A stretch of DNA of 64,000 nucleotides from Candidatus Adlerbacteria bacterium. GTDB taxonomy: Bacteria; Patescibacteriota; Minisyncoccia; Phycocordibacterales; SBAW01. The DNA is taken from positions 6,525 through 70,524 of the forward strand of contig CAINNF010000009.1 in NCBI GenBank assembly GCA_903851045.1, written 5' to 3'. The notes beneath the pieces are model-generated. The model was not told the DNA's origin. It searched no databases and saw nothing but the letters and a program-made list of their open reading frames with translations. The position numbers and the translations under genes are program-made. Of this stretch, positions 3,715 to 6,700 are shown piece after piece (the stretch's first letter is position 1; each line of letters begins with the position of its first letter).

Positions 3715-6700
3715 CTTCCCTCACAAGAGAAGGAAACATGGATCGATTAGTATTCCTTCGCTAAACACATTACTGTGCGTGCACGTAGAGCCTATCAACG
3801 TAATCATCTCTTACGGATCTCATAATGATTATTCATCTTTGAGCCGGCTTCGCGCTTAGATGCTTTCAGCGCTTATCCAATCCCGACATAGCTACCCAGC
3901 AATGCCCTTGGCAGGACAGCTGGTACACCAGTGGTCAGTTCACTCCGGTCCTCTCGTACTAGGAGCAAATCTCATCAATAATCGACGCCTGCAGTAGATA
4001 GGAGACCAACCTGTCTCACGCACCTTTTCATACATTACTGTATGGATCGGACTGTAAATTTACCCTGAGCGTAGTCGAAGGGTTACTTCGATACATTTCG
4101 GGTAGTTGATGTTCAGTCTCTACGGGTGTTTGCACACTTCATGGAAGAGGCGATATAACATCACCGAGCCAAAAAGTACTACCGTAAAAGGGTTGGGATT
4201 GAACCAACATCCGTGACTCGCCACTTGATGCCCAGCGAGTCTGCTCTGTCCAATTGAGCTAACCTTTTACGGGGAGGATTTCTCCTCCACGAAATGCACA
4301 AACTTCCCTCGGTATTGTCCTACCTCTGTTGAGTAGGATTCCACCGATATCAATCAACTTCTTCGCACATATTTCTATATGCGACCGCCGTGGCGGGTTG
4401 GTTCCTTGCCCCGCGAGATCGTTAGATCTTTTGCGGGGTCTATCTTTTTTATTCTTCTCATTCATAGAACGAAATTCTTCTCGAGGGTTCAGACGGTCCA
4501 ATGCCCCATTCTTTCGAATGAGAACCTGAACGGTCTGAACCCAGCTCGCGTATCACTTTAAATGGCGAACAGCCATACCCTTGGGAGCTTCTCCACCCCC
4601 GGGATGTGATGAGCCGACATCGAGGTGCCGAACTCTGCCGTCGCTATGGACGCTTAGGCAGAACTAGCCTGTTATCCCCAGAGTAGCTTTTGTCAGATAA
4701 TCTTCCACCGCGTCTAATACGGATGGTCGGTTCACTATGTCCTACTTTCGTACCTGCTCGACACTTACGTCTTGCAGTCAAGCACCCTTATGCCATTACG
4801 CTATCGGCACGGTTTCCATTCGCGCCTAGGGTACCTTAATGAACTCCTCCGTTACTTTTTAGGAGGATAGCGCCCCACTAAAACTGCCTACCAGATACTG
4901 TCTCGACAAGGTTTTGCCCTGCCGGTTAGTACATACAAATTCACAGAGTGGTATTTCACTGACGAGTAGATAGCGACCAAAACCGCTACCATCAAACCTC
5001 TCCCACCTATGCTACGCAGTAAACCCATATGTACAATATCAAGCTACAGTAAAGCTTCTGGGGTCTTTTCGTCTATCTGCAGGTAACCGGCATCTTCACC
5101 GGTACTGTATTTTCACCGAGCTGTTCTCCGAGACAGTTCCCAAGTCGTTACACTATTCGTGCGCGTCTGAACTTACCAGACAAGGAATTTCGCTACCTTA
5201 GGACGATTATAGTTATCGCCGACATTCACCAGGGCTTATAACAGTCACCACTACCCATTGCTGAATAGCAACGCCATTATTTGACCTTCTGGCATTGGTC
5301 AAGTGTCACCCCCTATACATCCTCTTACGAGTTCGCAGGGAGCTGTGTTTTTGGTAAACAGTCGCTTGGGATTCTTTAGCTGCGGCCCCAATAAATTGGG
5401 GCAGGCCTTATCGCGAACTTACGGCCGCTGTTTTGCCGAGTTCCTTGGAGAACACTCACTCGTTCGCCTTACTCTTCTCGAGCTGATCACCTGTGTCGGT
5501 TTGCGGTACGGTCGAACATGTGCTGAAGCTTAGAAGTTTTTCTTGGCAGGCTCTTCGCTGACATCCATCCCGCGAACGGGACGTGCTCGCCACCATGCGA
5601 TACTTGCAATAAAGCTGCACACCGGATTTTCCTGGCGTACGTATCTTCTGGCAGTGACGTCAATCCGATAAGACGCGTCAACTTTTTTCCTGCGTCACTC
5701 CATCGCACACATGCCGGTTAGGGAATATTAACCCTATGTCCATCATCTCCGGCTTTCGCCATCGACTTAGGCCCGACTAACCCTTCGCTGATCACCGTTG
5801 CGAAGGAAACCTTGATCTTTCGGCGTGCGGGGATCTCACCCGCATTGCGGTTACTTGTGCCTGCATTCTCACTTCCCAACGCTCCACTATGACTCACGTC
5901 TTTAGCTTCATTGCGATGGGAACGCTCTCTTACCGCTTGCATCGTCCGAAGACGTTGCAAACCCTCAGTTTCGGTACCATGTTTTAGCCCCGATTATCTT
6001 CGGCGCAGAATCTCTCGATGAGTGAGCTATTACGCTTTCTTTCAAGGATGGCTGCTTCTAAGCCAACCTCCTCATTGTCTACGAAATTCCACCTCCTTGT
6101 GATGCACTTAACATGGATTTTGGGACCTTAACTTGAGATCTAGGACTCTTCTCCTTTTGACCAGTGGAGCTTAGCCCCCACGGTCTAACTGCCGCATAAC
6201 ACTACTGGTATTCGGAGTTTGATAGGATTCGCGAGCTTTCGCCCTGTCGAATCCTTCCAGTGCTCTACCCCCAGTAGCCAATCGATGCGACGCCAGCCCA
6301 AAAGCTGTTTCAGAGAGAACCAGCTATTACAAGGTTCGATTAGCTTTTCACTCCAACCCACAAGTCATCCGAATGTTTTGAACGGCAAAACGGTTCGGGC
6401 CTCCAGTGTGATTTCTCACACCTTCACCCTGCTCATGGGTAGCTCACCTTGCTTCGGGTCTTATGCATACTACAAACGCGCTATTCACACTCGGTTTCCC
6501 TTCGGCTCCACGCTTTCGCGCTTAGCCATACGCAGTATACATAAACTCGCAGGCTCATTCTTCAATAGGCACGCCGTCGAGGACTTGCGCCCTCTTCGAC
6601 TCGTTGTAGACATATGGTTTCAGATCTATTTCACTCCCCTCTCGGGGTTCTTTTCACCTTTCCCTCACGGTACTAGTTCACTATCGGTCTTTGAAAGTAT

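Follow-up and report, generated by a model that had tools for sequence, protein, structure and literature searches.

A group I intron with a putative tRNA-derived module on its P6 helix in a 23S rRNA gene of Patescibacteria

In bacteria of the Candidate Phyla Radiation (CPR; Patescibacteria), position 2593 of the 23S ribosomal RNA (rRNA) is an insertion hotspot, 23IS12, where the insertion is typically a group I intron carrying a LAGLIDADG_1 gene (Tsurumaki et al. 2024, PMC11270868). Rfam recognised 45% of the 23S insertions surveyed there; long unrecognised ones were left uncharacterised, and the word tRNA (transfer RNA) is absent from the main text. Here we describe an insertion at the same position in a 64,000-nucleotide (nt) stretch of DNA from a Candidatus Adlerbacteria bacterium (GenBank assembly GCA_903851045.1, contig CAINNF010000009.1, positions 6,525 to 70,524), hereafter called the window. 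It shares host group, insertion site and ribozyme class with the 23IS12 introns; however, it lacks an open reading frame (ORF), has a tRNA-shaped module on its P6 helix and is missed by the Rfam model of that survey, so that it would fall among the long insertions left uncharacterised there. The account given below as a whole, a group I intron at U2593|C2594 with tRNA-derived cargo on P6, is one that we consider probable.

The same insertion point is used by the Cr.LSU intron of the Chlamydomonas reinhardtii chloroplast 23S gene, which encodes I-CreI and is inserted after U2593 (GAACGU|CGUGAGACAG). The two have the insertion point, the group I class and the occurrence of LAGLIDADG endonucleases in the family in common, a likeness by site and class alone; in contrast to Cr.LSU, the window intron is bacterial, has no endonuclease gene, bears tRNA-like cargo and has 136 nt between its 5' splice site and its guide sequence. 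Non-decoding, cloverleaf-like processing signals are known as the t-elements of plant mitochondria and the mascRNA of MALAT1 (cut by RNase P and RNase Z). Like the window module, these are embedded and keep the acceptor/T-arm shape; however, they sit at the ends of transcripts or in intergenic positions and are demonstrably cleaved, whereas the window module lies in a ribozyme helix and has no free acceptor end. The mitochondrial tyrosyl-tRNA synthetase of Neurospora, CYT-18, binds the P4-P6 domain of group I introns as a tRNA mimic and also ties this domain to a tRNA-binding protein, but the mimicry there is three-dimensional and without a cloverleaf, whereas the window intron has a literal cloverleaf, predicted from its sequence, on P6. 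The tRNA-Ile and tRNA-Ala genes of the 16S-23S spacer are co-transcribed with rRNA. Such expression from an rRNA promoter likely also applies to the canonical tRNAs found in relatives of the window intron, whereas spacer tRNAs lie between rRNA genes and not in an intron or intervening sequence (IVS) within a mature rRNA. Finally, group I introns inside tRNA genes of Patescibacteria have recently been described (PMC13011429); phylum, ribozyme class and the association of tRNA with intron are shared, the nesting is reversed (the intron lies in the tRNA), and nested or tRNA-like elements in rRNA introns are not mentioned in that work. A search of the open-access literature found no account of rRNA group I introns that contain tRNAs or tRNA-like modules, which is absence of evidence and not proof. 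The intron itself is ordinary for Patescibacteria, and its tRNA cargo appears to be undescribed.

The 23S rRNA gene occupies 3729-7220 on the minus strand of the window (Rfam large subunit (LSU) model, 2349 bits over the full model) and is followed by a 5S gene at 3492-3605 on the same strand. It spans 3492 nt, compared with the 2925 positions of the LSU model, and cmscan places a single large insertion of ~513 nt in helix 93, between ...GGGUUCAGACCGUU and GAC.... By direct reading, 23S homology ends at ...GCUGGGUUCAGACCGU (U, 4530) and restarts at CGUGAGACAGG (C, 4020). The insert folds at -213 kcal/mol, with z = -10 relative to shuffled versions. An earlier examination of the letters without database searches (the sequence-only reading) had called a group I intron that lacks an ORF and occupies the I-CreI-type site (after U2593) in a 23S gene of Patescibacteria, and this headline appears right. 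The contiguous 23S flanks on which it relied are seen both by direct reading and in the Rfam LSU alignment, the insert does end in G (4021), and it holds no credible ORF, the longest having 80 amino acids, a TTG start and no Pfam match; LAGLIDADG- or GIY-YIG-type endonuclease domains were likewise not found by Pfam in this ORF. Its lineage assignment also agrees with our comparisons, in which a Candidatus Adlerbacteria metagenome-assembled genome (MAG) matches the exons at 88% identity over 3 kb and a Candidatus Nomurabacteria MAG at 90% over 467 nt. The intron, its borders and the elements that face the exons are as follows.

4530..4545, minus strand: end of the 5' exon (...GGGUUCAGACCGU); its last nucleotide, U4530, is E. 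coli U2593 in the Rfam LSU alignment, and the exon ends at the same place in 30+ relatives
4021..4529, minus strand: predicted group I intron, 509 nt, between U2593 and C2594
4021, minus strand: omega-G, the final intron nucleotide; all complete introns of the family end in G
4005..4020, minus strand: start of the 3' exon (CGUGAGACAGGUUGGU), from C2594 onward (direct reading and cmscan)
4393-4383, minus strand: internal guide CCACG|GCGGUC (P10|P1), recovered when every intron was searched for its best 11-mer; covaries with the exons
4485..4499, minus strand: 5'-proximal exon-complementary element GGACCGUCUGAACCC, pairing with exon GGGUUCAGAC (10 base pairs (bp), a CxC mismatch, then G-C, U-A and U.G)
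4396..4405, minus strand: GGAACCAACC, complementary to positions +11 to +17 of the 3' exon (GGUUGGU); paired there in the minimum free energy (MFE) fold and partly conserved in relative L149

To place the insert among its relatives, genomes (species representatives) were scanned for an S-element-like AGTCC 15-45 nt before G+CGTGAGACAG (pattern AGTCC N{15,45} GCGTGAGACAG), which gave at least 120 loci. Among the matches listed (at least 120), 32 are true insertions at this 23S site, of 213-1034 nt, and 88 are chance matches outside 23S. Nearly all hosts of these 32 are Patescibacteria MAGs (Saccharibacteria, Parcubacteria/Paceibacteria, Nomurabacteria, Kaiserbacteria and Adlerbacteria). The blocks common to the window intron and its relatives in this family (L2593) cover intron positions 138-230, 399-434 and 474-506, and positions ~240-398 are missing from the closest relatives among the matches listed. 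In addition, metagenomes were scanned for a T loop 50-80 nt upstream of CCGUAGAGACU, a block that is invariant in the family; this gave 42 loci, among which selection for a T loop inflates the frequency of cargo. At least 27 of these 42 have their 23S exon junction precisely at the site of the window intron, around T-loop-bearing cargo.

Examination of the guide placed the 5' border. With one A-to-G change, opposite U2593, as the exception, the guide block (CCACG|GCGGUC at 4393-4383 in the window intron) corresponds to the joined exons GACCGU|CGUGA in reverse complement. In P1, GCGGUC (4388-4383) pairs with all six nucleotides of the 5' exon GACCGU, with G opposite U2593 in a U.G wobble, and in P10 the guide strand pairs with the 3' exon CGUG (4/5 pairs in the window). 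The family form of the block is (U)CACGGCGG(U)(C), located in most members 58-300 nt from the 5' splice site. Guides and exons change together: 3' exon CGUGA occurs with UCACG (16 members), CGUAA with UUACG (L143), and UGUAA with UUACA (L145 and L151), and 5' exon GAACGU occurs with GCGUUC (L019, L077 and L094). The guides of the relatives always place G opposite U2593. With this guide, the 5' splice site is predicted at 4530|4529 and the intron covers 4021-4529; joining of the exons would give GACCGU|CGUGAG, identical to E. coli and without an extra U. The boundaries drawn in the sequence-only reading (4021-4528, 508 nt) are thus kept at the 3' end and moved by one nucleotide at the 5' end. 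The guide proposed there was GGACCGUCUGAACCC with 12 base pairs. Its complementarity to the exon is real, although it consists of 10 bp, a CxC mismatch and three pairs including U.G; as a functional guide, however, it would put the splice site after GACCGUU, with the extra U, and only part of the family has it. The 4393-4383 guide, in contrast, is conserved in most members and changes along with the exons. The GGACCGUCUGAACCC element is present in eight family members examined (the window, L021, L025, L030, L043, L114, L134 and L149). Since it is kept in these members while the exon is invariant, it suggests an accessory exon-binding helix, which could stack on P1. In the MFE fold, the GGAACCAACC element may extend P10.

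The helices of the core, P2 to P9, were mapped onto the window intron through the Rfam alignment of L060 (337 nt), the nearest cargo-free relative among the matches listed. The predicted core elements, and two hairpins outside them, are the following.

4364..4383, minus strand: P2.1-type hairpin CGCAUAU-AGAA-AUAUGUGCG, homologous to the L060 hairpin in the Rfam alignment
4358-4353 / 4110-4105, minus strand: P3, GUUGAU / AUCAAC; 5/6 pairs change on both sides, and 99.4% of cells are paired
4347-4343 / 4313-4309, minus strand: P4, UCGGU / ACCGA, invariant across the family
4338-4318, minus strand: P5 hairpin UCCUACUC-AACA-GAGGUAGGA, with A-rich J4/5 and J5/4 on either side (homology to L060)
4308-4306 / 4126-4124, minus strand: base of P6, GGG / CCC
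4123-4114, minus strand: J6/7 GUAGA and P7 5' strand GACUG (4118-4114), together the family-invariant block CCGUAGAGACU
4104-4061, minus strand: P8, an extended hairpin of 44 nt; all five outer pairs covary
4060-4050, minus strand: J8/7 AAUUUA and P7 3' strand CAGUC (4054-4050)
4044-4029, minus strand: P9 hairpin CAUACA-GUAA-UGUAUG, identical to P9 of L060; 5/6 pairs covary
4503..4526, minus strand: 5'-terminal hairpin GGUUCUCAUUC GAAA GAAUGGGGC (RNAfold), within the large insertion that separates the 5' splice site from the guide
4409..4438, minus strand: peripheral hairpin CCCCGC-AAA-AGAUC-UAAC-GAUCU-C-GCGGGG, upstream of the guide (RNAfold), not conserved in L149

This core was evaluated in an alignment of 27 family members from which the P6 cargo had been removed, with the structure scored including the P3/P7 pseudoknot; the covarying core positions lie outside the patterns used for collecting the sequences. 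Standard pairs make up 96.8% of the cells, compared with 33-40% in controls with the 3' partners shifted by 1-3 columns. Among the 34 pairs, 21 change on both sides, and the covariation score of 0.485 (0.171 in shuffles) was reached in 0/500 shuffles. The fifth P7 pair, for example, is A-U in 17 sequences and G-C in 10. Moreover, a family covariance model built from 26 relatives, with the window sequence excluded, matches solely this insert in the 64-kb window, with two matches that flank the cargo: the 3' half (J6/7-P7-P3'-P8-P7'-P9) scores 53.5 bits (E 2.4e-9) and the 5' half (P3-P4-P5-P6) scores 37.2 bits (E 5.9e-6). We therefore regard it as very likely that the insert is a group I intron, and self-splicing is predicted. 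As to the P7 strands GACUAC/AGUCC suggested previously, AGUCC indeed lies in the P7 3' strand, whereas GACUAC (4075-4070) is part of P8, on its 3' side, and the 5' strand of P7 is GACUG. Two other assignments were rejected. An initial P4 of CCCCGC/GCGGGG together with a P3 of CCCUCGAG/CUCAGGG was dropped once the P/Q-like blocks AUCGGU/ACCGAG had been seen and confirmed by homology, and CAUCAA in the loop of the anticodon arm of the module, an alternative match for the 3' strand of P3, was dismissed as a 6-mer match expected by chance.

The cargo lies in P6. The distance from the Q-like block (AUACCGAGG) to CCGUAGAGACU splits the family introns into size classes. P6 is bare in ten members (15-24 nt) and a simple hairpin in others (39-84 nt). 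An endonuclease class (~445-503 nt) comprises L019, L069, L077, L094 and L114, with ORFs of 156-169 amino acids; the GFLDGDGS motif is found in all five, each ORF extends into the conserved P7 block, and the one scanned, that of L114, matches LAGLIDADG_1 (Pfam, 45 bits). A tRNA-module class (~150-275 nt) is formed by the window intron (181 nt) together with many relatives from metagenomes. In the Candidatus Adlerbacteria MAG L114, the 23S gene is 88% identical to that of the window over 3 kb; its intron begins with the same eight nucleotides as the window intron and has the endonuclease gene where the window has the cloverleaf. The LAGLIDADG_1 gene of L114 fits what has been reported for 23IS12 (PMC11270868). 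These comparisons indicate that P6 is the cargo site of the L2593 intron family, which is left bare or holds either a LAGLIDADG gene or a tRNA or tRNA-like module. In addition, extra hairpins resembling P7.1/P7.2 were seen between P7 and the P3 3' strand in the endonuclease-bearing L019, L069, L077 and L094 and in the ORF-less L112, and the guide lies at most 5 nt from the 5' splice site in L019, L077 and L094; cargo-free and tRNA-bearing members are without these hairpins and have a distant guide. The two patterns suggest two sub-lineages at the L2593 site.

In the tRNA class, RNAfold gives a common layout of GGG-AA, a stem of 18-20 bp, sometimes a small hairpin, the cloverleaf, a 3' hairpin, the return of the stem, one nucleotide and CCC-GUAGAGACU. 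The corresponding elements of the window are listed below.

4303-4286 / 4145-4128, minus strand: P6a, an 18-bp stem (covariation in 16 cargo-bearing relatives)
4273..4288, minus strand: small hairpin GGAGG-AGAAAU-CCUCC at the junction preceding the cloverleaf (RNAfold)
4182..4272, minus strand: tRNA-like module at the tip of P6 (Rfam tRNA, ARAGORN and MFE fold)
4149..4165, minus strand: 3' hairpin GGUGAUG-UUA-UAUCGCC after the cloverleaf, with an equivalent in all cargo-bearing relatives

The 18-bp stem has an identical, gapless geometry in 16/19 cargo-bearing members. In these 16, 15/18 pairs change on both sides, and the covariation score is 0.707 compared with 0.279 in shuffles, 0/500 of which reach it; the set had been pre-selected for at least 15/18 pairs, and the informative measure is the covariation, not the percentage paired. 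As judged by this measure, the P6a stem is under strong structural selection.

The cloverleaf at 4182-4272, the most unusual feature of the locus, had gone unseen in the sequence-only reading. The Rfam tRNA model (RF00005) matches 4185-4268 on the minus strand with 30.4 bits (E=2.5e-4 in a 651-nt search; gathering threshold 29), and the match is unlisted in the gathering run on the whole window. ARAGORN reports 'tRNA-???' at 4183-4270 and assigns no amino acid. Folded alone, the module has the cloverleaf as its MFE structure (z = -3.8). The D arm (4259-4243) is GCUC-AAUUGGACA-GAGC, with UA before it and GG in the loop; the T arm (4208-4192) is GUUGG-UUCAAUC-CCAAC, with a G-C pair closing the T stem. 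Together, the two arms retain the elbow nucleotides of tRNA. The anticodon arm (4241-4215) has a stem of 7-8 bp and a loop of ~13 nt instead of a 5-bp stem and a 7-nt loop (28 nt in place of 17 in the Rfam alignment). The acceptor helix (CCGUAAAAGG/CCUUUUACGG) has 10 bp, three pairs more than usual; the next bases are UAG, and the module is without an unpaired discriminator or CCA. Because of the remodelled anticodon arm, the closed acceptor and the lack of CCA, the window module is best described as tRNA-shaped but predicted to be unable to decode.

An origin of the module from tRNA is indicated because relatives hold canonical-looking tRNAs at the same spot on a homologous stem, and it is likely that the module is tRNA-derived cargo at the cargo site of the family. 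Rfam tRNA matches of 48-71 bits were obtained inside such introns in L142, L144, L146, L151, L159, L161 and L130, among them the canonical-looking Glu-UUC of L151 (70.8 bits) and Ala-GGC of L159 (64.1 bits), both in L2593 introns. L021, a Saccharibacteria MAG (CAYZIR010000001.1), has a 1034-nt L2593 intron of the same family (1506-2539, minus strand), the P6 stem of which carries a 58.1-bit tRNA with a 9-nt anticodon loop and encoded ACCA, and a second, degenerate tRNA-like element with a T arm (GUUGGUCCAAUCCCAAC) nearly identical to that of the window. Both tRNA-like modules of L021 have an encoded ACCA; a long hairpin in its cargo contains an intact copy of the target site and helix 93 (ACGUCGUGAGACAGU), and a direct repeat of ~75 nt is present in two copies between the 5' splice site and the guide. 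On the same P6 stem, L007 carries 200 nt of cargo.

Nested tRNAs were also found at other rRNA positions. The 16S gene of L135 (metagenome contig Ga0209211_10018067) contains two Intron_gpI introns (58.9 and 55.6 bits), the second of which (7578-7948) encloses a tRNA at 7743-7816 (65.5 bits; Thr-CGU by ARAGORN) with the same spacing to CCGUAGAGACU as in the 23S family. In L124 (1563-2040), the J6/7-P7 block and T-arm-bearing cargo occur at another 23S site, intron-less position 2599 (~E. coli 2500). L057 (Patescibacteria MAG JAUPVY010000012.1) has, besides its L2593 intron, a ~307-nt insertion at the helix-45 IVS site (4813-5119) that is closed by a long stem and contains two tRNAs, one at 4892-4968 with an odd anticodon loop and a GCCA end and the other at 4974-5049 (Ala UGC) with an ACCA end; thus, tRNAs nested in rRNA insertions are not confined to group I introns. 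L141, L145/L154, L151 and L162 show a further 23S insertion ~55-65 nt downstream of L2593 (intron-less ~2745-2755), which probably matches the CPR site 2604 or 2657 listed in PMC11270868. The scan of viral contigs revealed no rRNA introns; one match was false (inside a tRNA) and two lay in tRNA arrays. In L163 and L164 (IMG/VR viral contigs) and in L160, a tRNA-like element with anticodon AUU lies ~60 nt upstream of GUCCGUAGAGACUGUAC, in tRNA arrays and without rRNA context. This block resembles J6/7-P7 of group I introns and may represent another intron with a nested tRNA, or chance.

Parsing of the modules, which had been collected by requiring cloverleaf stems, revealed which parts vary. 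The 7-bp acceptor stems are diverse in sequence and each is compensated, the D and T loops are canonical, ~10 have a U-rich leader with a final U, and at least 10 encode NCCA, often with AA after it. The anticodon arm with the variable region ranges from 19 to 96 nt while the acceptor, D and T arms are kept: in L142 (with a GAAA tetraloop), L147, L127, L157 and L150 hairpin insertions bring it to 31-96 nt, and L156 has a mere stub of an anticodon arm, with 3 nt in the loop. These modules indicate that the conserved part is the acceptor/T/D top half with the elbow, not the decoding part. A canonical anticodon arm (5-bp stem, 7-nt loop) is seen in the Glu-UUC and Ala-GGC modules of L2593 introns and in the Thr-CGU module of the 16S intron. 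Canonical Met-CAU, Cys-GCA and Trp-CCA modules were parsed as well, from loci without confirmed rRNA context. Encoded CCA was rejected as a mark of intronic modules, as ordinary tRNA genes of such genomes often encode CCA too, and L136, L152 and L165 were discarded as false positives (in L136 and L152, the pattern lies inside real tRNAs).

Several observations count against the account given here, and those that concern the ribozyme may be taken together with the two rival explanations of the insert. Rfam Intron_gpI (RF00028) gave no match, either on the whole window at the gathering threshold or on 3950-4600 at E<=10; the distance of 136 nt from the guide to the 5' splice site is unusually long; and the 4499-4485 element rivals the guide for three exon nucleotides. 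The Rfam result is attributed to the 181-nt P6 insertion together with the long (44-nt) P8, and it is not taken as absence of an intron because L060 scores 58.4 bits on Intron_gpI (gathering threshold 50) and because of the family model, the core covariation and the guide-exon covariation. This search had been proposed in the sequence-only reading, with the lack of a group I covariance match among the findings that would overturn it, and by that criterion the intron call would have been wrongly rejected. The missing Rfam match, the large P6 and P8 insertions and the remote guide would also suit a dead, non-splicing intron in a non-functional rRNA copy; this is very unlikely, since all family-invariant core positions are intact, P1, P3, P4, P6, P7, P8 and P9 pair, the rest of the 23S gene scores 2349 bits over the full model and the guide is equally distant across the family. 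An IVS excised by RNases without ligation, leaving the 23S rRNA fragmented, is a very improbable explanation of the insert. Fragmenting IVSs are known in bacterial 23S and probably present in CPR (PMC11270868), the helix-45 IVS-like insertion of L057 does enclose two tRNAs, and an embedded tRNA-like element could attract RNase P; however, the site lies within the stem of helix 93 and not at a hairpin tip of the helix 25 or 45 type, and the group I core covaries, the guide covaries with the exons and the insert has a terminal G. Moreover, the ends of the insert are unpaired with each other in the MFE and centroid folds, which speaks against the RNase III-type processing stem that had been raised earlier as the alternative to splicing.

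With a group I intron thus preferred, the nature of its cargo has to be weighed, and here too some findings run counter to a maintained tRNA-derived module. In the genome sample, which is less biased than the metagenome scan, tRNA-like cargo is clear in L021 and possible in L007, which makes 1 (perhaps 2) of 27 family introns among the matches listed. The unpaired leader and the discriminator/CCA that are normal for RNase P substrates are missing from the window module. In L149, the nearest organism (exons 88-95% identical), the same intron has a cloverleaf-like four-way junction with the T loop UCCAAAU, which looks weakly constrained. In some relatives, otherwise canonical intronic tRNAs have A34 (anticodon ACA in L146 and L144, AAA in L130 and AUU in L128), as expected if decoding is unselected. 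Bacteria very seldom have such anticodons, and a single G-to-A change separates each of the four from a normal Cys, Phe or Asn anticodon.

Such findings feed the main competing idea, to which we give somewhat less than an even chance, that the module is a functionless relic: a tRNA gene or copy landed in a permissive P6 loop and is decaying, any stable structure at the tip being tolerated. The window copy without decoding features or a free acceptor end, the far more degenerate version in L149, the A34 anticodons and the 6- or 9-nt loops of some relatives, and the many family members that carry no cargo are all in line with this idea. Yet in L142, L147, L127 and L157 the anticodon arms are replaced by unrelated hairpins of 31-96 nt, while the acceptor/D/T parts, the elbow and often NCCA-AA are intact and the stems compensated; the 18-bp stem is conserved as well, and so are the leader and the 3' hairpin. 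Plain decay should not spare the top half selectively, an argument biased by the T-loop-based discovery of loci. At the other extreme, the module could be a working tRNA gene, the product of which RNase P and a 3' nuclease would release for translation, as the canonical-looking Glu-UUC of L151, Ala-GGC of L159 and Thr-CGU of L135 (in a 16S intron) at the same place might suggest. For the window, this is extremely unlikely: the anticodon arm has 7-8 bp and a loop of ~13 nt, ARAGORN finds no amino acid, the acceptor is three pairs longer and lacks discriminator and CCA, and the 30.4-bit match is all that was obtained, unreported in the whole-window gathering run.

For the preferred reading, a group I intron with tRNA-derived cargo, the following course may be proposed. 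The intron probably sits in an essential rRNA gene, because the remainder of the 23S gene is intact. According to the established group I mechanism, exogenous guanosine would attack after U2593, and the freed 5' exon would then attack after the terminal G, which would give GACCGU|CGUGAG, restore helix 93 and release the intron. A tRNA would have landed in P6 as intron cargo, in place of a homing endonuclease, and later have lost decoding. The long P6 stem would keep the halves of the ribozyme together and shield core folding from the cargo. The top half of a tRNA (acceptor/T/D, with the elbow) is recognised by RNase P and other tRNA-handling factors. We therefore favour a handle function for the acceptor/T/D top half of the module: a factor that binds tRNA, most obviously RNase P, would recognise it on the excised intron or on the precursor. 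Any specific present-day function of the module is proposed tentatively, on the less likely side of even. For the window copy, the handle reading is weaker because the acceptor is closed and CCA is missing, and a stable P6 cap, which could also accompany the handle role, or a relic is about equally likely. A broader idea, which we regard as speculative and rather unlikely, is that rRNA group I introns of Patescibacteria and at least one helix-45 IVS carry and express tRNA genes as well as tRNA-like RNAs that do not decode. A module on the long, conserved P6 stem would then be recognised by RNase P or another tRNA enzyme; a usable tRNA would be set free from the excised intron or precursor or, in copies such as that of the window, the intron RNA would be marked for processing or turnover.

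Some further features of the window were noted. There is no 16S gene in the 64 kb despite the presence of 23S and 5S genes, and the rRNA genes appear to be unlinked or at least more than 56 kb apart. Two ordinary tRNAs are present, His-GUG at 59506-59578 and Leu-GAG at 60436-60521. Compared with the Rfam model, domain I of the 23S gene also contains two small expansions, one of ~32 nt (~6914-6945, minus strand) and one of ~26 nt (~6857-6885, minus strand), which are unrelated to the intron.

The window intron illustrates how large P6 cargo and a distant guide can hide a sound ribozyme core, so that many long, 'uncharacterised' rRNA insertions would escape Rfam; similarly, annotation pipelines that mask rRNA genes would miss tRNAs of this kind. 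The tRNA-shaped module at the endonuclease site, together with canonical-looking tRNAs in related 23S and 16S introns, points to a second class of group I cargo. If the broader idea is true, tRNA genes would be organised there in a new way and group I introns would have a new class of cargo in addition to homing endonucleases, and such cargo could protect endonuclease-less introns from loss. If tRNA enzymes do process the modules, this would bear on the organisation of tRNA genes in extremely reduced genomes, on the disposal of excised rRNA introns and on the persistence of introns without an endonuclease.

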